Assembly: GCA_051715345.1 (NCBI GenBank)
Contig: JBPXJQ010000004.1
Coordinates: forward strand, 25,019-89,018
DNA from: Candidatus Blackallbacteria bacterium
GTDB taxonomy: Bacteria; Cyanobacteriota; Sericytochromatia; UBA7694
Direction of reading: 5' to 3'
Length of the DNA: 64,000 nt
A model generated the notes under the pieces. The model saw only the letters and a program-made list of their open reading frames with translations. It ran no database searches and had not been told where the DNA came from. The position numbers and the translations under genes were made by a program. Below are positions 3,774-40,761 of this stretch, piece by piece. Every line of letters starts with the position of its first letter. Position 1 is the first letter of the stretch.

Positions 3774-6700
3774 GTGGAATCTTTATTTGACCAACTCAAG
3801 CCTGCATTAATTCAACGCTTATTAAACCAATCTGAAATTAGTTCTAAAGACCTGGATAATTTACGGGTTGTCAACAGCTTTCAAGAGGGCAAATCTGGCG
3901 CTGAAGTGCTTGAGGTTGAAAGCTTTTTGGGGGTTTTCAAAATCGAAGGGCGCACTGTTTTAAAAATCAGCACCCAGAGTCCTTGGCCAGATTATATTTC
4001 TGAAGAAGAGCGTTACCAACATCTTAGCCAGATTCAAGCCCTGTTTGCAAAATTGGTTTGGAGCACTACTCTGAAGGTTTCAAGCGAAACTGGAGAATTG
4101 CAAAATTACACTTGCACCTTTTGGCAACGTGCGCATGACCAGCAACCACTCCATGAAATGAATCAACTGAATCAACTCACACAAACCGAATTTTCAGCCG
4201 CTTTAAAATGTGTGGGGCAACGCTTGGTAGATGCTTTTTCTCTCGATGCACAGCCTTATCTTAGAGATGTTTCTTTTCCCTCCCTTTGTGAAGGTGTTTT
4301 GGGTTATCGTCTGCATCCCAAACAAGGACGCATTTACACCTTTGTTCAAGACCATTTCCAAGTCTCTTGGAAAAAGCCGACCTTTCGCTGGGCAGGTGTT
4401 GATTTGCCAGATCCTTATTATTATGCACGGGAAGCCCAAAACCTCAAACTCAGTCGGGTCTATCAAGGTGATATACACGGCGATCTTCATGCTGGTAATA
4501 TTTTTGCTGTGCTTAAAAATGGGAATGCCCAAGATATTTGCCTGATTGATGCAGGCCTCTCGGCTTCAAAGCAGGTTTTGTTTTATGACCAGGCTTATCT
4601 TGAAGTGAGCTTATTGCTGCAATCTGTATTGGCCCAACAAGAGAAAGAAAAAGACTGGGTACAATATCTTGGCTGGCTGAGTGACCTGGGCAATTTTGAA
4701 TTGTCTGACTTGCATCAGAAAAAGGGACTTCACTCTGAGTATTTGCCACTTCTAACGAAGATTCAAGCTTTGCGTTCATCTTTTACGACTTTTTTAGAGA
4801 CAAAAAATAGCCTTTCAGAAGACTTACGCAAGCAGTATCACTTTCAACAAATCTGTGCAGCCTTAAATTTTTGCAATAAACCTTTGGATCAGATTTCCCA
4901 GACTATGTCTTCTGTAGAAAAGAACAACTGTCTGATGCAGGGAGGGGCACAAAGGCGATTTTCTTATCTCTATGCAGCATTTTTCTTAAAAAGTTATTTG
5001 GCAAAATATGGTGATGCCCCAGAAATTGTTGACTTGAAACAAACATTGACTCGTGACCCCAGCTATCTTTATAAACTGGAGCTGCGCAAGCGAGAGGCTT
5101 ATGAATCTATCTGGAGAAAGTGGGGAACCCCTGAAACCAATCAACAATTATCAATTAAAGAATTATCTCAGGATTATCTTCAGCTAAGAGCGCTCAAATC
5201 ATTTAACCGTGTGCCTTCGTCAGTGAGCCATTATTATGCGAATTTTTTTTATCGTTGGATTTTTGTAAAAAAATACCCGAATTGTCAATCTTCAAATGAA
5301 AAACTGCAAATGTTGGCAATGTTGGCTCTTGCTGTTCAAGATTCATTTTCTCATTTGTCTGAAGTTTTAAAACAAGATCCTCAAATTGACCTCATGGGTT
5401 TGTCAGATGACTTAAAAGGAATAGAACTGTCAAAAACTAATCCAGAAAACAGATTAGATTGGTTCTATTTTGCTTTTCTATTAATTGAAGATTGCCTGTT
5501 CTTGGAAAATGAAGAGCTTTTTTCTGAGTGGATCAAAAGAGTTGAAAATGCAGTTAATGATCTTTCATTAATTAAACATGAAAAATTAGCTTCGATATAT
5601 AATCAAATTCAATATTACAAAGCTATTAAATTTGCTTTAGATCAAAAAATTGAATCACTAAAAGAGCACTTAGAACAATGGAAACCAGAAGAAGATGACT
5701 GGATTGATGCTGAATGGTGCATTAAAAAAGCCTTTTTAAATACCACACTGTTTAAGAGAAATTATCAAGAGGGGTTTGATTTTTTAGATTCAGTACTCTC
5801 ACAAGCGGATAAATGGCCTTTTCAGGAACAAATGTATTTTTTTGAGGGCTATGATTTTATTGAAAAGTCCTTCAGACATTATTCTGATCCAATTGCCTAC
5901 ATTGGGGGAGAAAAAAAGAAAGAATTAAATCTCCAGGGGTTTGAAACATTTCAAACTTATCTGGAAAAAAATATCATTCCAGATATCGAGAAAAATAATC
6001 CTTATTTCAATCAGGTTCGTATCTTTTTAAGTGGACAAGATATTCACGTTACCAGACGCAATGCTTCTTTGAATGCAATGGTTTTATTGTTTCAATTGGG
6101 ATTTATGCCACAGGTTTTTAGACTTCAATTGATTTCTCATGAAACCTGGCACCGGGTGAATCTTTATTTATTTAAGGAATATCTCCAATTCTCTTTTTTC
6201 TATCTTTTGAGATATTTAACTGTCAATGAAATAGATGCAGAATGGGTTAGAATTCAACTACATAAGGGTTTATTTGTATACAACAATGAGAGCATTAATG
6301 AAAAAATATTTTCTTTGACTCTTTCAATTTATAAACACCTCCGTGGTGAAGATAATCGCTTGTTGATGCTGATTGTTGCTGTGTTATCTGAGTTTATTCT
6401 GCAGATACCTGAAACATTTTGGAATGAATTTTTTTGGGATATTTGGACTACATTTAATCATATAGATCATAGAAATGTACTGTATTCTCAATCCAAACAA
6501 GGCCCTTTTTTCATAATTAAAAATTCGCTATCGCGGATCACAGACCCCGTTCAACTCGAAGAATGTTTGTATGTTTTATTAGAAACAGATGGGGATTTGG
6601 ATGCGGACTATTATATAAGGCCCCAACTTTTATATGAAATTATTAAAAATGTTCTTTATCAATCCATCCCGTTAAATGAGCGATTAATAGCCAGAGTTAA

Positions 6701-8963
6701 TGATTTAGTATATAAAACATCTGATTTAAAAATAGCTTATTTTGCTTTTGCAAAACTTAGATTGATTGAGGATAGGTTCTTAAATAGCTTACACAAAGAA
6801 AAAATAGCGTCTCATATTCAATTATACACAGACTTTCCTAGCTTCTTCAGAAGTACCTTTGCCTTTTTGGTTTTGTATACTTCTGCTTATCCTGAAGCAA
6901 GAAAAAATGTACATAAATTAATTATTGAAAATGGTAGAAGTATTTGGTCAACAGGGATTGAAAAAAATAAAGATGGTTGGGCTAAACATCATTTTGGTGA
7001 GGGTTCAGTAAAATTACATGAATACAAATACAAACAATATACCTTTCCCCAAGGACTACAATTTAATCAAACAGAGATTTTAGAGTTGTATCAAGCTTTA
7101 AAAGAATCTATTCAGGAATTCAAACAAAGCCCTTTTGCTCCTTCTCAAACCCAACTATCGACTCGGCTCATTTTTATGAGTGGACTTGATTTTTCACTGC
7201 TCAAAGAAATGAATTATTTTATAGATGACTATGCTGATATCCTTAAATTGGAGCCAGACTATCAAACTTTAAAAGAGGAAATTATGGCTGGAATTCAGGA
7301 ACATGCTCCTTCTTCAGGACGGCCTTCCGATTTGACTTCCGATAACCCAAATACAGTCCAAGAAGGTATTTCTCACTTGAGAGATATGTTGTTGGAACAC
7401 GATTTTGAGAATTTCACAGATTATTGGACAACTCTTCTAAGTAAAATTCTTCTTCAACAAGAACCACTTTTACATACTTCTTTAGAGTTAATGTCATATT
7501 GGCTGGTTTATTACAGAAATGAAGAAGCTATAAAATCATCACTTTTTCAAAATTTTTATTTGCAAATATTGGATAAATATCAAGCAAATAAACCTACTTC
7601 AGATTATCTAGAAAAAATTGAGTTGGGTTTGGTTAAAATATCCATGGTTCTTCGCTTTTGGAAGAAAAACTCAACTGGTATTGATTACTTTTTGGGATTG
7701 AGAAATACAAGTAAATATGAAAGTGTTAAGAATTTACCAGAACTTGATAATCAAGATATCTACCGACCAGAATTGTTTCCCACAATTGTTGATTTTTTAA
7801 AAAATGTCCAAACCACTGATTTTTTTCTGAGTGGAGTTTCGATTCAAGGCTTTAAATCTTTTTCAAACCATCATAATATCAATATTAAACTTCGACCTCT
7901 TAATGTTTTGGTTGGTGCCAATGGAGCGGGGAAAAGCAGCTTCTTTAAATTTTTAGAATTTGTTCAAGAATTCTCTCAAATGCCAATGGACAGTTTAAAT
8001 GCAAAAATGGGTTCAATCAGTGATTTGCTTTATTATGGCACTAAACAAACCGATTCATTGACTGGCAGTTTGACTTTTATTAAAAGTGAGCAAGAAAGTC
8101 TTTCTTACAATTTTCAATGCAAACCAACTGAAGATTTTAAATATTTTTACTTTGAGTCTGAGAGCATTACTTTGTCTTTGTTGGACCAAAACCAAACTCT
8201 CTATGAAAGTAAGAAACCACAGTCCGATTCTGTTCTTTTTACCCATGCTACACAACCGTGGGCAAAAATGTTGCGCGAATTGTTAGGCTCATTGGAACGT
8301 ATTCATATCCCAGATACATCTCTTTCCAGCAAACTCAGAGATGAAGCTAACCTTTATGATAATAAACATTTGGCCTCAGATGGAAAAAATTTAGCGGCCT
8401 TTCTCTATGCCCTAAAAAATTCACCGGAAGAGAAAGCACATTACAAACAGATGATTCGTCTGATTCGTCATGCCTTTCCTCAATTTCAAGAATTTGTGCT
8501 TGAACCTAATTTTGAAGATGCCAAAATTCAACTTCAATGGCGAGAAGAGGGTTCTGAATATGTCTTTGGAGCCCATCAGGCTTCAGATGGCTCATTGCGT
8601 TTTATGGTGCTCACCGCACTCTTGATGTCTCCTCCACACCGCTTGCCACGGATCTTAATTCTCGATGAGCCAGAACTGGGACTTCACCCAAAGGCTTTGG
8701 CAACCTTGGCCAATATGATCAGTTTGGCTTCGCAATATTGCCAAATTTTAATCGCCACCCAATCCAGCGAGTTATTAGACCATTTCGAAGCGGATGATCT
8801 CGTGATTGTGGATCGTACCCGTTTTGATCTTCAGACCAATGAGATGAAAGACAAAGCCTTTACTGTGATGACCCGTAAAAATTCTGAAGAATTGGCATCG
8901 TGGTTAGAAGACTATTCGCTCAGTGAACTCTGGAACAAAAATGTTCTTGGGGGTAAGCCATGA
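3774..8963 (+). CDS. Giant multidomain protein: N-terminal protein-kinase/APH-like domain, ~1000-aa helical low-complexity spacer, C-terminal OLD/AAA_21-type ABC ATPase (putative antiphage/abortive-infection effector)
   Basis: 1729-aa ORF with a GTG start preceded by AAGGG. N-terminus has a Gly-rich loop (EGKSGAEVLEV), a VLKIS lysine and the catalytic loop IHGDLHAGNIF (about nt 4470-4499, HGDxxxxN as in APH/choline-kinase/ELK folds) followed by LIDAGLS (a DFG-equivalent DxG). C-terminus has a Walker A at LNVLVGANGAGKSSFFKF (about nt 7914-7940), ASDGSLRF and a Walker B/D-loop RILILDEPELGLHP (about nt 8652-8690), then ILIATQSSELL. This is the canonical layout of AAA_21/OLD-family ATPases. The coding DNA is strikingly AT-rich relative to the flanks. 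Confidence 0.8.
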   Translation: MESLFDQLKPALIQRLLNQSEISSKDLDNLRVVNSFQEGKSGAEVLEVESFLGVFKIEGRTVLKISTQSPWPDYISEEERYQHLSQIQALFAKLVWSTTLKVSSETGELQNYTCTFWQRAHDQQPLHEMNQLNQLTQTEFSAALKCVGQRLVDAFSLDAQPYLRDVSFPSLCEGVLGYRLHPKQGRIYTFVQDHFQVSWKKPTFRWAGVDLPDPYYYAREAQNLKLSRVYQGDIHGDLHAGNIFAVLKNGNAQDICLIDAGLSASKQVLFYDQAYLEVSLLLQSVLAQQEKEKDWVQYLGWLSDLGNFELSDLHQKKGLHSEYLPLLTKIQALRSSFTTFLETKNSLSEDLRKQYHFQQICAALNFCNKPLDQISQTMSSVEKNNCLMQGGAQRRFSYLYAAFFLKSYLAKYGDAPEIVDLKQTLTRDPSYLYKLELRKREAYESIWRKWGTPETNQQLSIKELSQDYLQLRALKSFNRVPSSVSHYYANFFYRWIFVKKYPNCQSSNEKLQMLAMLALAVQDSFSHLSEVLKQDPQIDLMGLSDDLKGIELSKTNPENRLDWFYFAFLLIEDCLFLENEELFSEWIKRVENAVNDLSLIKHEKLASIYNQIQYYKAIKFALDQKIESLKEHLEQWKPEEDDWIDAEWCIKKAFLNTTLFKRNYQEGFDFLDSVLSQADKWPFQEQMYFFEGYDFIEKSFRHYSDPIAYIGGEKKKELNLQGFETFQTYLEKNIIPDIEKNNPYFNQVRIFLSGQDIHVTRRNASLNAMVLLFQLGFMPQVFRLQLISHETWHRVNLYLFKEYLQFSFFYLLRYLTVNEIDAEWVRIQLHKGLFVYNNESINEKIFSLTLSIYKHLRGEDNRLLMLIVAVLSEFILQIPETFWNEFFWDIWTTFNHIDHRNVLYSQSKQGPFFIIKNSLSRITDPVQLEECLYVLLETDGDLDADYYIRPQLLYEIIKNVLYQSIPLNERLIARVNDLVYKTSDLKIAYFAFAKLRLIEDRFLNSLHKEKIASHIQLYTDFPSFFRSTFAFLVLYTSAYPEARKNVHKLIIENGRSIWSTGIEKNKDGWAKHHFGEGSVKLHEYKYKQYTFPQGLQFNQTEILELYQALKESIQEFKQSPFAPSQTQLSTRLIFMSGLDFSLLKEMNYFIDDYADILKLEPDYQTLKEEIMAGIQEHAPSSGRPSDLTSDNPNTVQEGISHLRDMLLEHDFENFTDYWTTLLSKILLQQEPLLHTSLELMSYWLVYYRNEEAIKSSLFQNFYLQILDKYQANKPTSDYLEKIELGLVKISMVLRFWKKNSTGIDYFLGLRNTSKYESVKNLPELDNQDIYRPELFPTIVDFLKNVQTTDFFLSGVSIQGFKSFSNHHNINIKLRPLNVLVGANGAGKSSFFKFLEFVQEFSQMPMDSLNAKMGSISDLLYYGTKQTDSLTGSLTFIKSEQESLSYNFQCKPTEDFKYFYFESESITLSLLDQNQTLYESKKPQSDSVLFTHATQPWAKMLRELLGSLERIHIPDTSLSSKLRDEANLYDNKHLASDGKNLAAFLYALKNSPEEKAHYKQMIRLIRHAFPQFQEFVLEPNFEDAKIQLQWREEGSEYVFGAHQASDGSLRFMVLTALLMSPPHRLPRILILDEPELGLHPKALATLANMISLASQYCQILIATQSSELLDHFEADDLVIVDRTRFDLQTNEMKDKAFTVMTRKNSEELASWLEDYSLSELWNKNVLGGKP

Positions 8964-9676
8964 ACTGGAAACGTCTACATATTCTGGCAGAAGGGCCCAC
9001 AGAAGAACAATTTGCCAATGATGTAATTAAACCGCATCTTTATCAATATGCGGTAAATTCCTCAGTTCAATGCATTGTAACCAAACGTCTACGACAAGGT
9101 CCTGACAAAAAAGGTGGTTTAACTGATTACAGAAAGGCGCGGGAACATCTCGTTCGTTTGATGAATGAACATAAGGATACGAATTGTTTTTTTACGACGA
9201 TGTTCGACATCTATCACATGCCATCCTCAACTGAGCCAGAAAAAAGTTTTCCTGGTTATGCAGAGGCCATGAGAGAAATAAAAACATCTCATTTTGAAAA
9301 TGGCTTAACCATTCTGGCTCAAAAAATGAAAGAAGATCTTCAGCCTGAGGTCCCAAGAGTAGATCGACTACTTCCTTATTTTCAGTTACATGAATTTGAG
9401 GCTTTGATTTTTGTAGATCTCAGCTATCTCCGATTCCATTATCCGGTGGTGTGTGGCGATCTGCAATTTGAGCGGCTCGAACAAGCCTTACAATCTGCTC
9501 AAGGCGATCCCGAAAAAATCAATCATGAAAACGGGCCCGCAGCCAGAATCATTGAACAAATTAAAACCTACAGAAAACCAACAGGGGCAATGATAGCCCA
9601 AGATATTGGATTGTTTCGTCTGAGAGAAAAATGCCATTTCTTTGATCTCTGGCTGACATCCCTTGAAAAATTGTAA
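8960..9676 (+). CDS. DUF4276-like protein (TOPRIM-like partner of AAA_21 ATPases)
   Basis: 238 aa. Its start overlaps the stop of the giant ATPase gene (ATGA at 8960-8963). The N-terminus LHILAEGPTEEQF resembles the conserved EGxTE start of the DUF4276 family, which I recall as typically 187-238 aa and usually adjacent to AAA ATPases. The assignment is from memory of the family and was not searched. Confidence 0.65.
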   Translation: MNWKRLHILAEGPTEEQFANDVIKPHLYQYAVNSSVQCIVTKRLRQGPDKKGGLTDYRKAREHLVRLMNEHKDTNCFFTTMFDIYHMPSSTEPEKSFPGYAEAMREIKTSHFENGLTILAQKMKEDLQPEVPRVDRLLPYFQLHEFEALIFVDLSYLRFHYPVVCGDLQFERLEQALQSAQGDPEKINHENGPAARIIEQIKTYRKPTGAMIAQDIGLFRLREKCHFFDLWLTSLEKL

Positions 9677-25740: not shown

Positions 25741-26952
25741 TTAAAGGCGCTGAACCCGATAGCCTTTGTCTTCCAGTTCAGCCACAATCTCTGCCGCGTG
25801 TTGGTGGTCGCGGGTTTCGATCTCAACTTCGATTTGGGTCGTACCCAAAGGGATATCCGAGCGAAAGCGGGCATGTTCAATATGCAGAACATTGGCTTTT
25901 TGCCCTGCCAAGAGTTTTAAGACTTTCTTGAGGGAGCCCGGTGAGTCGGTGATCAGGGTTTTAAAGGTCAAAAAGCGCCCGGCGCGCATCATGCCTTTGT
26001 TGATAATCGAATCCAGTAATTTGACATCAATGTTTCCCCCACTCAAAACCACCAAGGTCGGCCCTGTGGCTGGCACCTTGCCACTGAGCAATGCTGCCAA
26101 ACCAGCCACACCTGCGCCTTCGGCAATCACATGTTTGTATTGAATCGCAAAATAGAGGGCATCACTGAGTTCTTCTTCTGAGACCTGCACCATTTCATCG
26201 ACATACTGACAGAGCACCTCAAAATTGCGTTGAGCGGGCTTTTTGATCGCAATGCCATCGGCAATCGTGGGGCTTGAGGGAGCGAGGATCAGCTTCTTGC
26301 GCGCAAACGATTCGTAAAGCGAAGACGAAGCCCGGGCCTGCACACCAATCAATCTGACGGAGGGCTTCAAAGCCTTGATCGCAATGGCAATTCCAGAGAG
26401 CAACCCCCCCCCACCGACAGGAACCACAACCGTTTCAACTTCGGGCAATTGATCCAAAATCTCCAGACCACATGAGCCTTGACCCGTAATGATATCGTCG
26501 TCGTCAAATGGGCTGATAAAAGTCACGGGGTTGGCTTCGAGCCATTCCATGGCATGGTCTTTGGTTTCATCAAAGCTTTTGCCAATGCAGATCACCTCTG
26601 CGCCATAATTGCGGGTGGCCTGAACCTTGGCCAAGGGGGCATCAGCAGGCATAAAAACAGTGCTTGAAATGCCTGTCAGGCGACCGGCCAGAGCCACCCC
26701 CTGAGCGTGATTGCCTGCAGAAATGGCCATCACCTGTTTGACTTGGCCTTCGGCAGCCAATTTACGCAACTTATAATAGGCACCGCGAATTTTAAACGAG
26801 CCTGTGCGCTGTAAATTTTCGAGTTTGAGTGTCACCGGGGCCCCCAAAATCTCACTCAGGCGCATCGATTCCAAGATCGGCGTCACCCTTGCAACAGGCC
26901 GAATTTGGGTTTCAGCTTGTTGAATCGCAGCTAAATCTACCTGACAGATCAT
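25741..26952 (-). CDS. ilvA: Threonine ammonia-lyase (threonine dehydratase) with a C-terminal ACT domain
   Basis: PLP-fold with …TGSFKIRGAYYKL… (PLP-binding Lys), …GGGGLLSGIAIA…, and a C-terminal regulatory domain of about 80 aa. Confidence 0.85.
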   Translation of the reverse strand: MICQVDLAAIQQAETQIRPVARVTPILESMRLSEILGAPVTLKLENLQRTGSFKIRGAYYKLRKLAAEGQVKQVMAISAGNHAQGVALAGRLTGISSTVFMPADAPLAKVQATRNYGAEVICIGKSFDETKDHAMEWLEANPVTFISPFDDDDIITGQGSCGLEILDQLPEVETVVVPVGGGGLLSGIAIAIKALKPSVRLIGVQARASSSLYESFARKKLILAPSSPTIADGIAIKKPAQRNFEVLCQYVDEMVQVSEEELSDALYFAIQYKHVIAEGAGVAGLAALLSGKVPATGPTLVVLSGGNIDVKLLDSIINKGMMRAGRFLTFKTLITDSPGSLKKVLKLLAGQKANVLHIEHARFRSDIPLGTTQIEVEIETRDHQHAAEIVAELEDKGYRVQRL

Positions 26953-29246
26953 ATATGTTTATCCCCTCGGTTATCCGCTTGAGCCCTATTATACCCCGGT
27001 CGCCACCAATTCCAGCGGCCAAGCAACATCATAAAGCTGGGCACGAGAAAAAGCCGCACAACTGTGGCATCAAGCAAAATGGCTGCCGAAATGCCAATAC
27101 AGATTTCCTGGGTCTGAGGCGAGCCCGAAAAGACCCCCGGTAAAAATACCCCAAGCAGAATCAGCACCGCACCGGTGATCACCGACCCACTGCGGGCCAG
27201 CCCTTCGACCACCGCTTCGCGCACGGGAGCGCCGCGGTGGTAATACTCAGAAATGCGGCTCAGAATCAGCACCTCGTAGTCCATGCTGAGGCCAAAAATA
27301 ATACAAAACAGCACCAATGGCACAATATTGGTAACAGCCCCGTTGATCGGGGTGTGTAAAATCCCCGAAAACCAGCCCTGCTGAAAGACCAAGGTTAAAA
27401 AGCCAAAGGCCGAAACAATTGGCAAGAAGTTCATAATCGCGGCTTTGAGCGGCAAAACCACCGTGCGCATAATCCCGAAGAGCAACAGATATATACCGCC
27501 AAAGACCAACGCCAACATCACAGGCGCGTGGCGGTAGAGTTCGTGGGTAAAGTCCTGCACACGGGCCACCACACCGCCCGTAAGCAAGGTGATTTCGGGA
27601 TGCGCAACCGCATAGGCCCGCGCAAACCGAATGATCTTGCGCGTGTCTTCCAGCTCCATCGGGTCGCTGGGCAAAATATGCATTAGACTTAAATGGCTGC
27701 CTTTGGCCAGATTCACCAAAGGCGCGATGCGCTCTTGATTGTTCAAAAGACCCAAGGCGCCCAGATTGCTGTAGAGCGTGAGATAATCCGCTTTTTCAAA
27801 GTCGGGATTCCAACTGACCAGGCTTTTAACCTCTGCCACATAAGACTCTCGGCGCAGCGCCTGGTAAAAGGCATCCATTTTTTCCAAGACAGCAGGTTCA
27901 AAAACGGTTTGCCCCGGCGGGGCTTTGACCAGGATCGTCACGGGCAAAAGCTCCCCCGCCCAACCGTCTTTTTGCAAATGAGAGTAACCCAGCATGGATT
28001 CGGACTGAAGGGGCGCCACAGCTTGAACCGGCTCCCAAAGTTTCATCCAGCTCACTGGCAAAGCGCAAAGCAATAACAGGGCCGCTGAGAGCAGAAAATA
28101 GCGCAGGGGGTGGCCTGTCACATGTTGCGAGAAGCGCTTCCAGCTTGGATATGAGTCAAAACGCCCAATCCATTGGGATAAAAAACGGGGCCGATCCAAA
28201 AAGCGCTCACCCAAGGCCAGCAAAGCAGGCAAAACCAAAAGGGCATTGGTCAAAGAGAGACCTATCACCACCAACAGGCCCTGCATCACGGTGCGGCTCA
28301 AGGAGACATCGGGGATCAAGAGTACAGCGATACTGCAAAACATGATCAAGGCCGAAAACAAGACGGTTTCGCCTGCCCATTTGAGGGTCATGGACAACGC
28401 TGCTTCAACGGTTTTGCCCTGTTTGCGTTCTTCGCGAAAGCGGCTGACAAGAAAAAGGGAATAGTCGATCGCCAAGGCCAATCCGACCAATCCGGTGAGA
28501 ATCCGCGAAACGGGATTGGAGCCAAAACCCGGCAATTTGAGCAGACTGTTGAGCAAGATCAGGGTCGAAGCCCCCATTAAAAGAGGCAATAGAGCTGCGG
28601 TTAAGGCGCCAAAATTCAGAATCAAAATCACAAACGAAATCAGCAAGGCAATCGATTCGCCCCGGTGAGAATCTTTGTGGCCCTCTTGATGGGCATCGTA
28701 CTGAAAAGCAGTATTGCCTGTTAGCCAGGTTTTGATACCGGTTTGGGCTGACCAATTTTTTAAAAACTGTCGAAGCGGGCCAGACAGGGCCTGTGCTTCG
28801 GGCATGCGTAAGCGGGGGTCAAACTCCAAGAGCAACAGGTTGTATTGGTGGGGACGGCTGCTGCTTACACTGCGAATCGGCAAAAGCTGTGGAAATTGCT
28901 TTTGTAAAGCGGGAATCAAGGCCTCAATTGGCGCTTGTTTCGGCAGAACCACCGCTGCAGTACTGCCCAGGCGCAAGCCAAATTCTTCGCGCATCAATTT
29001 AACAACCTGAAAAGCTTCTGTATCTCGGGCCCCAGTGAGTTCTACTTCGGGGTTTTCATGGGGATTGAACTTTAAATTGAGCCCCGCGAAGGTCAGCACA
29101 CACAGCCAGACCAACAAAATACTTACCCGTTTTTGGTAGAGAAAGCGGCTGAAGTGTTCGAGCAAAATCTGCAAAAGCGAAACTCCTTGGCGGGCAGAAA
29201 TAGAAAGCCGTTCACAGCATTTTTTAATGCTAGCAGAAATTCGCAT
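26949..29246 (-). CDS. MMPL/RND-superfamily membrane transporter
   Basis: 765 aa. Two repeats of a large periplasmic loop followed by about 5 TM helices, typical of the MMPL family. Its stop overlaps the ilvA start (ATGA). Confidence 0.75.
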   Translation of the reverse strand: MRISASIKKCCERLSISARQGVSLLQILLEHFSRFLYQKRVSILLVWLCVLTFAGLNLKFNPHENPEVELTGARDTEAFQVVKLMREEFGLRLGSTAAVVLPKQAPIEALIPALQKQFPQLLPIRSVSSSRPHQYNLLLLEFDPRLRMPEAQALSGPLRQFLKNWSAQTGIKTWLTGNTAFQYDAHQEGHKDSHRGESIALLISFVILILNFGALTAALLPLLMGASTLILLNSLLKLPGFGSNPVSRILTGLVGLALAIDYSLFLVSRFREERKQGKTVEAALSMTLKWAGETVLFSALIMFCSIAVLLIPDVSLSRTVMQGLLVVIGLSLTNALLVLPALLALGERFLDRPRFLSQWIGRFDSYPSWKRFSQHVTGHPLRYFLLSAALLLLCALPVSWMKLWEPVQAVAPLQSESMLGYSHLQKDGWAGELLPVTILVKAPPGQTVFEPAVLEKMDAFYQALRRESYVAEVKSLVSWNPDFEKADYLTLYSNLGALGLLNNQERIAPLVNLAKGSHLSLMHILPSDPMELEDTRKIIRFARAYAVAHPEITLLTGGVVARVQDFTHELYRHAPVMLALVFGGIYLLLFGIMRTVVLPLKAAIMNFLPIVSAFGFLTLVFQQGWFSGILHTPINGAVTNIVPLVLFCIIFGLSMDYEVLILSRISEYYHRGAPVREAVVEGLARSGSVITGAVLILLGVFLPGVFSGSPQTQEICIGISAAILLDATVVRLFLVPSFMMLLGRWNWWRPGYNRAQADNRGDKHI

Positions 29247-29326
29247 CCAAAGCCGGGGATGTGGTATGATGCCACTGATATTTTTAATGGCTGCATCACA
29301 CCTCCTTGTGCGGAAAGGGACAGTAC

Positions 29327-29866
29327 ATGGAAAAACAAAAAGAACAGGACAATTGGGAGAAATTGACCCGGGTCGAACGCCTGGGTGAAATGCTTGTGCG
29401 GATACACGCCCTCAAGCTCTCTCAACTCACCGAATTGATGCAGGAACAGGAACGCACAGGCAAACGCCTGGGTGAACTGGCCGTCGAAAAAGGGTTTATC
29501 ACCCAAGATGAATTGGTTGATTACCTGATCGCTCAGATTCGCGGCAGCCAAGTCGTGGACGACAGCCTGCGTGAACTGGGCCGCATGACCACCGAAGAAA
29601 AATGGGAGCGCCTCTCTCAACACGAACGCCTCGGTGAAATTTTGATCAAACGCCAGGTCATTCGCCTGTCTGAACTGGTTGAAGCGATTGAAATTCAAAA
29701 ACAAAACCCCGAAAAACACCTCGGTGAAGTGCTGAAAGAAAAAGGCCTGATCTCTGAATCTGATTTAGATGAAGCGCTGCGGATGCAGTTTCAACAAACC
29801 GAAACCCTGCGCAATACCATTGAAGAGATTCAAAGCGCGCCAGCCAAAGACAAAGAGCCCACTTAA
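29327..29866 (+). CDS. Stand-alone tandem MshEN (T2SSE_N) domain protein, putative c-di-GMP receptor
   Basis: Four copies of the 24-residue MshEN motif RLGxxLVxxG(I/F)(L/V)xxxxLxxxLxxQ arranged as two pairs: RLGEMLVRIHALKLSQLTELMQEQ-ERTGK-RLGELAVEKGFITQDELVDYLIAQ and RLGEILIKRQVIRLSELVEAIEIQ-KQNPEK-HLGEVLKEKGLISESDLDEALRMQ. Start is the ATG at 29327 after AAGGGA (track ORF begins at a TTG at 29306). Confidence 0.65.
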   Translation: MEKQKEQDNWEKLTRVERLGEMLVRIHALKLSQLTELMQEQERTGKRLGELAVEKGFITQDELVDYLIAQIRGSQVVDDSLRELGRMTTEEKWERLSQHERLGEILIKRQVIRLSELVEAIEIQKQNPEKHLGEVLKEKGLISESDLDEALRMQFQQTETLRNTIEEIQSAPAKDKEPT

Positions 29867-29949
29867 ACGGAGCCCGCTGTCGAACCGATCAGCCCCCCAC
29901 CAACAGTTGTCCCTCACAAGCGGTTGTGAGGGATTCTTTTTTGAACAGT

Positions 29950-39942: not shown

Positions 39943-40761
39943 CTAAAGCAAACTGGTGATGCGCGCCCGCAGACGGTACATGGCCTCTTGAACCTCGTCT
40001 TCGCTCTTCATCAAAGGGGCAATCCGGTCCATCAATTTATCTGCCACAGCCAATAATTGATTAAAGCCAAATTTTTGAAAGCGATCAAAGCCCAATTCAA
40101 GCAGGGACTCTTCCAACATTTGATGGCTCGATTCAATCCCTACAAATTCCATCACAATGCTCTCCAGAGAATCGATGGGCGTGAGGCTGACAGTGGTACG
40201 CAAATCTTCACCCGAAACCCCCACCAAAAAGGCCTTGTGTTTGACCATCTCGTTCATAAATTGCAGGGCATCCCACTGATTAAACGGACACATTTCAAAG
40301 AAACGCGCGACCGTAAACGAACGCGGCAATTGTTTGGTAAAATCGGGCAAGCGCCCTTCAGAAGCCATTTGTAAAGCTTTATCTGAAAAACGCAAACCAC
40401 TGGTCAAGTGAGGTAATTTTTCACGCAATTTGGCAAATTCATCCATATAGCGGGCACTTTCCATCAATACCGCATCGAGAGAGACGTTGATATTTGGAAT
40501 GGGCAATTCTGCAGTTGTCAGCCCAGTCATCTGAAAATGCCCTGAAGCCCACCAGCCTATCAAGCGGTAAAGGGCATCTACGCCCAATAAATGATTTAAG
40601 CGACCGTGAGTGATGGTCCCTTTATCAAAATAGACAAAGGCCTCTTGGGCCACTTCTTTGACCTCCACGCGAAAGAGACAGTTCTTTTGCTCCAGCTTAA
40701 TAAACTGTAATAAATTAAACAGTGAAATCGAGGCCAATTCGCCCTCAAGCAAAACTGTCAT
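39943..40761 (-). CDS. DUF4388-like domain protein
   Basis: The N-terminal GELASISLFNLLQFI…G…H…G…ALYRLIGW…G.F pattern is reminiscent of DUF4388. Not searched. Confidence 0.5.
   Translation of the reverse strand: MTVLLEGELASISLFNLLQFIKLEQKNCLFRVEVKEVAQEAFVYFDKGTITHGRLNHLLGVDALYRLIGWWASGHFQMTGLTTAELPIPNINVSLDAVLMESARYMDEFAKLREKLPHLTSGLRFSDKALQMASEGRLPDFTKQLPRSFTVARFFEMCPFNQWDALQFMNEMVKHKAFLVGVSGEDLRTTVSLTPIDSLESIVMEFVGIESSHQMLEESLLELGFDRFQKFGFNQLLAVADKLMDRIAPLMKSEDEVQEAMYRLRARITSLL

Follow-up and report, generated by a model that had tools for sequence, protein, structure and literature searches.

Cyclic di-GMP (c-di-GMP) networks typically comprise many cyclases and few known receptors. Small receptors without an output domain do exist, as exemplified by the single-domain PilZ adaptors (e.g. 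MapZ and DgrA), which bind the ligand and dock on their target in a ligand-dependent manner. Here we describe a 179-residue protein made of two modules of another kind, MshEN_N, and nothing else. Its gene lies at positions 29327 to 29866 (+ strand) of a 64-kb stretch of DNA from a Candidatus Blackallbacteria bacterium, which we analysed at its full length and call the window. On balance, we think that this small, acidic, cytoplasmic protein acts as a c-di-GMP adaptor with two ligand sites.

The subdomains MshEN_N and MshEN_C were defined by Wang et al. 2016 (PMC5013675). In Vibrio cholerae MshE, each motif contacts c-di-GMP through the main-chain amides of Gly3 and residue 4, and further contacts come from Leu triads (motif positions 2, 17 and 21) and from Gln24 (Wang et al. 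2016, PMC5013675). Binding is lost when G11 or G40 is mutated; the position-1 Arg does no more than stack on the guanine, and R9A weakens binding less than 5-fold (PMC5013675). Residues 1-62/65 of MshE, which make up MshEN_N, bind c-di-GMP on their own (0.35 µM; PMC5013675), so that absence of MshEN_C is no obstacle to binding. In Thermus thermophilus PilF, the GSPII-B module carries Lys and Leu at its two position-1 sites; its affinity for c-di-GMP is 6 nM, and the first turn of its α1 helix unwinds upon binding. For PilF GSPII-C, which has Pro in position 1 of its motif II, the affinity is about 460 nM, and the Q190E+Q218E double mutant of PilF no longer binds. There are also MshEN domains that do not bind, namely XpsE, PilF GSPII-A and Deinococcus geothermalis PilB_3; the losses that disable XpsE are G11V, G40L, L54H, L58C and Q61V.

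Proteins with MshEN_N modules and no other domain have been listed before. Under the heading 'MshEN_N only, no T2SSE_N1 domain', Supplementary Table 4 of Wang et al. 2016 gives a '(MshEN_N)2' protein, cce_1044 of Cyanothece sp. ATCC 51142 (Cyanobacteria), which is not among the proteins measured in that study (PMC5013675). According to a paper from 2025, experimental tests of c-di-GMP binding had not yet been made on the MshEN domains of cyanobacteria. The stand-alone layout was thus already catalogued in 2016, and the 179-residue protein, with two modules and nothing else, falls into the same (MshEN_N)2 class, to which it adds a lineage-restricted family.

Two MshEN_N modules and no further domain

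The gene is an intact open reading frame (ORF) of 179 codons on the + strand, from an ATG at 29327 to a TAA at 29864-29866. An alternative in-frame TTG at 29306 would give 186 residues; we prefer the ATG because database twins of 179 residues (99-100% identity) agree with it and because a Shine-Dalgarno-like AAGGGA precedes it. With a ratio of non-synonymous to synonymous substitution rates (dN/dS) of 0.04 against an 87%-identical orthologue (locus L007) and with relatives in 16 GTDB species, the ORF is a real gene under strong purifying selection. Its product is acidic (pI 5.07, net charge -9), and so are all its homologues. The features of the gene are as follows; NF053729 is the NCBIfam profile introduced below, and confidence is that of the AlphaFold2 (AF2) model, in units of predicted local distance difference test (pLDDT).

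29327..29866, + strand: coding sequence of the 179-residue (MshEN_N)2 protein, stop codon included, from ORF and sequence.
29345..29377, + strand: lead-in 1, residues 7-17 (QDNWEKLTRVE); Trp10 is near-invariant and Arg15 invariant in the family alignments; repeated ahead of module 2.
29378..29536, + strand: module 1, residues 18-70, composed of motif 1a, the spacer ERTGK and motif 1b; NF053729 score 52.0 bits.
29537..29626, + strand: linker and lead-in 2, residues 71-100; conserved, with Glu83, Lys92 and Trp93 invariant; low AF2 confidence.
29627..29788, + strand: module 2, residues 101-154, composed of motif 2a, the spacer KQNPEK and motif 2b; NF053729 score 64.9 bits; pLDDT 75-87.
29789..29863, + strand: C-terminal tail helix, residues 155-179, with an invariant Glu167 that is the counterpart of Glu83.

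The two modules, of 53 and 54 residues, are each built from a pair of 24-residue MshE-type motifs. In module 1, motif 1a (residues 18-41, RLGEMLVRIHALKLSQLTELMQEQ) is followed after five residues by motif 1b (residues 47-70, RLGELAVEKGFITQDELVDYLIAQ); in module 2, motif 2a (residues 101-124, RLGEILIKRQVIRLSELVEAIEIQ) is followed after six residues by motif 2b (residues 131-154, HLGEVLKEKGLISESDLDEALRMQ). The first-pass annotation, made from the window's sequence, had recognized this twofold motif pair, and all four copies are indeed where it placed them, but its 5-residue spacing applies only to the first pair. It had also described the second motifs as near-canonical and the first ones as having lost a Gly. 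The latter is correct, since Gly10 is replaced by His in 1a and by Gln in 2a; the former needs the qualification that 2b opens with His131 rather than Arg.

Such a pattern is beyond chance. A relaxed motif regular expression, run over the six-frame ORFs of the window, matched four times in the 179-residue ORF and once in all other ORFs together; the protein's N-terminal half can be aligned with its C-terminal half at 33% identity (79 residues, E 2e-14); and the E-value with NF053729 points the same way. In fact, the repeat unit (about 84 residues) exceeds the 53-residue core. A Trp that is invariant or nearly so (W10, W93) stands 8 residues ahead of the motif start of each module, and an invariant Glu (E83, E167) lies 13 residues past the last Gln of each module. 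The family alignment also shows an almost invariant K-L-S-Q-L in the a-motifs and a highly conserved ELGxMTxEEKW in the linker.

Profile searches identify the modules. NF053729 ('cyclic di-GMP-binding domain-containing protein, MshE-related') has 53 positions and a curated cutoff of 38 bits. The whole protein scores 97.5 bits (E 2.7e-28), and each module taken separately exceeds the cutoff and covers positions 1-53 of the 53, module 1 with residues 18-70 and module 2 with residues 101-154. With the same profile, V. cholerae MshE reaches 86.4 bits, and the proven binder PilF GSPII-C, at 63.6 bits, is in the range of the two modules. Two tandem MshEN-type modules, as initially proposed, are therefore present, with the restriction that each is the N-terminal four-helix MshEN_N subdomain and not a complete MshEN domain: the MshEN_C α/β subdomain (T2SSE_N1) was not found, neither as a PF05157 match nor in the AF2 model, which contains helices only. 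A T2SSE ATPase domain was not found either, as TIGR02538 matches with its first 53 positions only (18.5 bits against a cutoff of 675). Searches with Pfam and NCBIfam profiles revealed no further domain, which agrees with the earlier view that there is no ATPase or other output domain, and PADLOC gave no defence-system match for the protein.

One search appeared to contradict this assignment. The first-pass annotation had proposed that the absence of a hit to the T2SSE_N/MshEN profile PF05157 would refute the MshEN assignment, and PF05157 (T2SSE_N, now named 'MshEN') matches neither the protein nor its halves, even at E<=10. Taken literally, this outcome refutes the assignment, but control segments show that the test is invalid. 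MshE 8-68 (V. cholerae), PilF 290-369 (T. thermophilus) and Geobacter PilB 22-81 give the identical Pfam pattern, with no PF05157; in two PilB-like fragments, PF05157 (90 positions) matches only residues 116-195 (P0145) and 112-197 (P0094), the α/β region past their motifs, although both fragments contain the motifs as well. PF05157 models MshEN_C, not the ligand-binding four-helix MshEN_N. Since genuine MshEN_N segments miss it too, its failure to match is no evidence against MshEN_N identity.

What Pfam does report is a partial match to DUF4388/PatA_N (PF14332; 27.9 bits), which covers positions 46-79 of the 122 in the profile, and, below threshold, a match to FumaraseC_C. We rejected both identities: they are motif-level cross-matches, reproduced with the MshE, PilF and PilB control segments. 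By contrast with this partial match, a 272-residue protein encoded elsewhere in the window (39943..40761, - strand) shows a full-length PATAN/DUF4388 match (profile positions 1-120 of 122, 8e-14). There is a more general pitfall for annotation here, as the 53-residue motif of MshE, PilF and PilB cross-matches PF14332 at about positions 46-79 as well as FumaraseC_C, and MshEN_N-only proteins end up labelled DUF4388 or nothing.

Structural comparisons lead to the same family. When the PDB was searched by sequence, significant matches were limited to the N-domains of pilus and secretion ATPases. With the single sequence as query, PilF (3e-8) and MshE (5HTL, 1.4e-5) were found, module 1 aligning with residues 8-68 of 5HTL; with a family profile, PilF rose to 2.4e-14, the best match (module 2 against GSPII-C residues 300-369), and Geobacter PilB was found at 6.3e-9. 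AF2 predicts the helix order α1-turn-α2-α3-turn-α4 twice, and the turns are still predicted where the a-motifs lack Gly10. The predicted four-helix bundle can be superimposed on ligand-bound MshEN_N, most closely on PilF GSPII-B (0.8 Å).

The differences from the described systems are also clear. Unlike V. cholerae MshE (5HTL; PMC5013675), the protein duplicates the module and stands alone, without MshEN_C and ATPase; its a-motifs lack Gly10 and its motif 2b opens with His, and it adds the conserved Trp lead-ins and the Glu-bearing tail helices. Like PilF, it carries tandem MshEN-type modules, and its module 2 shares with GSPII-C a motif II that does not start with Arg and a longer spacer. Unlike it, the protein has no effector domain, whereas the PilF modules retain the C-terminal subdomain, which provides extra ligand contacts, and are fused to a hexameric ATPase.

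The predicted ligand site and its proposed use

All four motifs of the protein keep Leu2, Gly3, Leu17, a hydrophobic residue at position 21 (M, L, I and L) and Gln24. Across 48 homologues, the mean entropy of the 20 ligand-contact positions is 0.31 bits, compared with 1.17 bits at the other motif positions and 1.54 bits outside the motifs (Mann-Whitney p 2.4e-7). In the order 1a, 1b, 2a, 2b, Gly3 is kept in 48, 48, 48 and 46 of these homologues and Gln24, which is solvent-exposed, in 46, 48, 44 and 46. Gly10 is present in 1b (48/48) and in 2b (43/48); the a-motifs carry N, Q, H and others at this position.

The protein departs from the MshE consensus at a few places. Arg occupies position 1 in motifs 1a, 1b and 2a and is replaced by His131 in 2b, but a position-1 Arg is not strictly defining, since PilF GSPII-B (Lys and Leu) and GSPII-C (Pro) bind without it. 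The GSPII-C spacer is also longer than five residues, and Geobacter PilB has Asn at position 10. As far as sequences can tell, His131, the 6-residue spacer and the missing Gly10 are thus deviations that are tolerated in proven binders or found in relatives. None of the substitutions of the type that disables XpsE occurs in the protein. We therefore predict, with considerable confidence, that at least one module binds c-di-GMP, and binding by both is likely.

How might such a protein work? Our proposal for binding, stoichiometry and conformational switch proceeds by analogy. As in MshE and in PilF GSPII-B and GSPII-C, each MshEN_N module would bind one c-di-GMP, with an expected stoichiometry of 2:1. 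Motif positions 2, 17 and 21 would form the Leu triads on which the guanines rest, the main-chain amides of Gly3 and residue 4 would form hydrogen bonds with the Hoogsteen edges of these bases, and Gln24 would hold the ribose-phosphate. The α1 helix is expected to run on into the conserved lead-in with its Trp; in module 2, it would also extend into the linker between the modules, which is conserved too. Binding of the ligand could then reposition the surfaces of lead-in and linker and alter docking on a partner, so that the protein would serve as a single-purpose adaptor, in the manner of stand-alone PilZ proteins. Lead-ins and linker are plausible moving parts because, in the AF2 model, lead-in 1 and α1 of module 1 form one uninterrupted helix. 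The likeness to PilZ adaptors is a functional analogy and not homology: those have a β-barrel fold, and their RxxxR and DxSxxG motifs are unrelated.

A more specific version of this scheme can be imagined, and we regard it as a speculative long shot. W10 and W93 would stack on the exposed guanine face, and E83 and E167 would recognize the Watson-Crick edge of guanine, a role played by Asp108 in MshE and by Asp266 in PilF. Together, the four residues would replace the position-1 Arg and the MshEN_C contacts in a self-contained MshEN receptor peculiar to Sericytochromatia. Unwinding of the lead-in would switch the pose of the modules and control a lineage-specific target, candidates being an MMPL lipid exporter in one clade and gshA-like/HAD genes in the other (see below).

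Family and gene neighbourhoods

We collected 51 homologues of 168-207 residues, all unannotated or 'hypothetical'. Those with a named source come from metagenome-assembled genomes (MAGs) of Candidatus Sericytochromatia or Blackallbacteria. A scan of one genome per GTDB species returned 16 full-length relatives, 15 from genomes titled Candidatus Sericytochromatia and one from a genome titled Cyanobacteriota, and a 100% match was found on JADMKE010000003.1 (isolate MAG_89). In a HMMER scan of 1.84 billion cluster representatives, about 6 represent the full-length family, and roughly 4,000 others share the module only. The family is restricted to Sericytochromatia.

Similar layouts occur outside it. 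Like our protein, cce_1044 consists of two MshEN_N modules only and comes from a cyanobacterial lineage; unlike it, cce_1044 has 145 residues and lacks the Trp lead-ins and the tail. We considered orthology between the two and rejected it, as the similarity is motif-level and out of register (BLASTP 1e-5 over 58 residues; hhalign 89.7% over 60 columns). Several metagenomic proteins are likewise nothing but MshEN_N repeats, with two (P0153, P0107), three (P0080, P0084) or about four modules (P0058, P0059), but they are unrelated to the 179-residue family outside the 53-residue core. NF053729 matches strongly to P0153 and P0107, the two of them that were scanned. P0058 and P0059 (430-435 residues) contain about 7-8 consecutive MshE-type 24-residue motifs and are potential multi-site c-di-GMP binders.

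Around the (MshEN_N)2 gene, the window contains the following features:

26949..29246, - strand: MMPL-family resistance-nodulation-division (RND) transporter, 765 residues (Pfam MMPL 5.4e-51; TIGR00833 and MmpL3-like matches below cutoff).
25741..26952, - strand: ilvA, threonine ammonia-lyase (PALP 1.6e-79; TIGR01127 471 bits, cutoff 378.75).
29262..29270, + strand: putative promoter, an extended -10-like element TGGTATGAT in the 80-nt intergenic region, conserved in 8/9 aligned clade-A upstream regions.
29909..29944, + strand: terminator-like structure, a hairpin with an 11-bp stem (29909-29934) and a T-run behind it, lying 43 nt past the stop codon and between convergent genes.

The gene is transcribed divergently from an MMPL/ilvA operon, as originally described: the MMPL start lies 80 nt from the ATG at 29327, and the MMPL stop and ilvA overlap by 4 nt. 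The upstream regions in which TGGTATGAT was compared are those of the window and of loci of relatives including L001, L007 and L018-L022. A two-hexamer consensus scan did not find the element; as it is conserved yet missed by that scan, we infer its promoter role rather than observe it. The window's copy lies within a small palindrome, GTGGTATGATGCCAC. From this arrangement, the (MshEN_N)2 gene looks monocistronic.

The neighbours differ between clades. Relatives with at least 69% identity (clade A) stand head-to-head with an MMPL gene in about 10/11 species, the MMPL proteins being only 41-57% identical and the outer flanks different. Among relatives with 53-60% identity, a plant-type glutamate-cysteine ligase gene (gshA-like) lies immediately ahead of the (MshEN_N)2 gene in 7/8, and in most (5/8) a phosphoglycolate-phosphatase-like hydrolase of the haloacid dehalogenase (HAD) type comes next, at 3-36 nt or overlapping. 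In a 46%-identical relative, the gene lies between a Zip transporter and a metallophosphatase. Guilt by association, which we tried, gave no lead: about 25 loci contain no type IV pilus (T4P), type II secretion system (T2SS), GGDEF, EAL or PilZ neighbour, and the two clade-specific neighbourhoods involve genes of housekeeping type. Genes for pili, secretion, chemotaxis or c-di-GMP turnover are not consistently near the homologues, and none is in the window. Only one locus hints at c-di-GMP turnover, with an HD_5/HD (HD-GYP-type) gene at 6 kb from the homologue.

A number of other observations were made along these loci. The order glutamate-cysteine ligase, (MshEN_N)2 gene, HAD phosphatase appears as an operon in loci of the more distant clade, L004 (4615-8499), L012 (8620-12446), L006, L025 and L028, and in L004 and L012 a conserved protein of about 400 residues without family match comes after the HAD gene. 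In one subclade (L001, 801-3733; L011, 4836-7743), a CsoS1D_N/BMC-like shell protein, HMG-CoA reductase and a GHMP kinase (mevalonate pathway) are encoded beside MMPL. In at least 6 species, the gene immediately downstream of (MshEN_N)2 encodes LexA. In the window, the convergent gene is a 209-residue ORF (29950..30579, - strand) with a signal-peptide-like start, a long low-complexity stretch rich in Pro, Ser, Thr and Ala and no family match; it is conserved, with 73-91% identity in the closest relatives and 47% in L007. Farther on, 30774..33227 (+ strand) encodes an 817-residue major-vault-protein-like protein (MVP_shoulder 3.6e-27, SPFH/Band_7, sub-threshold Vault_3) that stays near the locus in the closest relatives (L007, L013-L016; 86-99% identity). 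At a distance, 3774..8963 (+ strand) encodes a 1729-residue protein whose C-terminal part of about 380 residues matches the candidate-defence ATPase HEC-01A of PADLOC (6e-105; Pfam AAA_21), with an N-terminal extension of about 1350 residues that includes a TCAD9 domain. The next gene (8960..9676, + strand; DUF4276, HEC-01B match 3.5e-50) overlaps it by 4 nt, and the two form a HEC-01-like pair with an unusually large A subunit.

Weighing the readings

Several points weigh against a two-site c-di-GMP adaptor. Over the family, position 1 is R, K or T in 1a, R, K, P or Q in 1b and H, P, S or Y, never Arg, in 2b. The conserved Leu and Gly residues also serve the fold, hence their conservation is no proof of binding. 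The AF2 model is moderate (overall pLDDT 62-63, with 75-87 for module 2, 52-76 for module 1 and less than 50 for lead-in and linker), a second run with 48 sequences was no better (62.8 vs 62.5), and the shortness of the modules keeps the Foldseek E-values weak (0.57). Our literature search returned no experimental paper on any stand-alone MshEN_N protein, this family included, and no paper on c-di-GMP in Sericytochromatia. A search for conserved partners of the orthologues, as the first-pass annotation had advised, produced no universal partner gene, but MMPL in one clade and gshA-like plus HAD genes in the other. In the window, Pfam detects no GGDEF or EAL domain and Rfam no c-di-GMP riboswitch; tblastn with the GGDEF domains of PleD and WspR (approximate queries) was negative on 379 kb of related loci, a sample too small to inform.

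Could the protein simply hold c-di-GMP? A buffer or sponge would take up two molecules per chain and, without any downstream partner, set a threshold or damp fluctuations. Two predicted sites within 179 residues and no output domain would suit this role, as would a monocistronic gene with its own conserved -10-like element and terminator and no conserved partner gene. What argues against it is the strong conservation outside the ligand site (W10, W93, K92, E83, E167, the KLSQL of the a-motifs and the ELGxMT of the linker): so many conserved residues suggest an extra interaction surface, and we consider a pure buffer rather improbable.

The opposite possibility, also improbable, is that the modules are degenerate scaffolds which have retained the fold and lost c-di-GMP binding, as in XpsE and PilF GSPII-A, and which serve protein-protein interaction only. 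The non-binding MshEN domains, D. geothermalis PilB_3 among them, provide precedents, and the absence of Arg from position 1 of 2b, its variability in 1a and 1b, the a-motifs without Gly10 and the second spacer of six residues could be taken as signs of decay. Yet the losses that disable XpsE are absent; all four motifs retain Gly3, Leu2, Leu17, position 21 and Gln24, where conservation is highest; both modules exceed the NF053729 cutoff; and motifs without Arg bind at nM affinity.

That the ligand is another cyclic dinucleotide, such as 3'3'-cyclic GMP-AMP (cGAMP), seems very unlikely. MshEN_N does bind cGAMP weakly (KD 0.33 mM), and no c-di-GMP cyclase turned up in the DNA that was sampled; but the four motifs keep the mode of recognition in which main-chain amides at Gly3 and residue 4 read O6 and N7 of guanine, which excludes adenine, and no CD-NTase or CBASS gene is nearby. 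Finally, a PATAN/DUF4388 protein, which is the label given by the Pfam gathering threshold, or a small regulator that binds DNA and controls the divergent MMPL gene is scarcely credible, the PF14332 match being of the kind that the MshE, PilF and PilB segments reproduce.

The two-site adaptor is thus the reading that we favour. The practical gain is modest and lies in a corrected annotation, as Pfam gives a DUF4388/PatA_N label and PF05157 is blind to MshEN_N by design. For the biology of the group, we have here a compact, two-site MshEN_N protein without output domain, a predicted receptor from a class that is the non-photosynthetic sister of Cyanobacteria. As a minimal system, it would lend itself well to asking whether tandem MshEN_N modules bind independently or cooperatively, how an MshEN_N protein without an output passes on its signal, and what is under c-di-GMP control in Sericytochromatia. 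The additions that are specific to this family, the Trp lead-ins and the Glu tails, could prove interesting in their own right.

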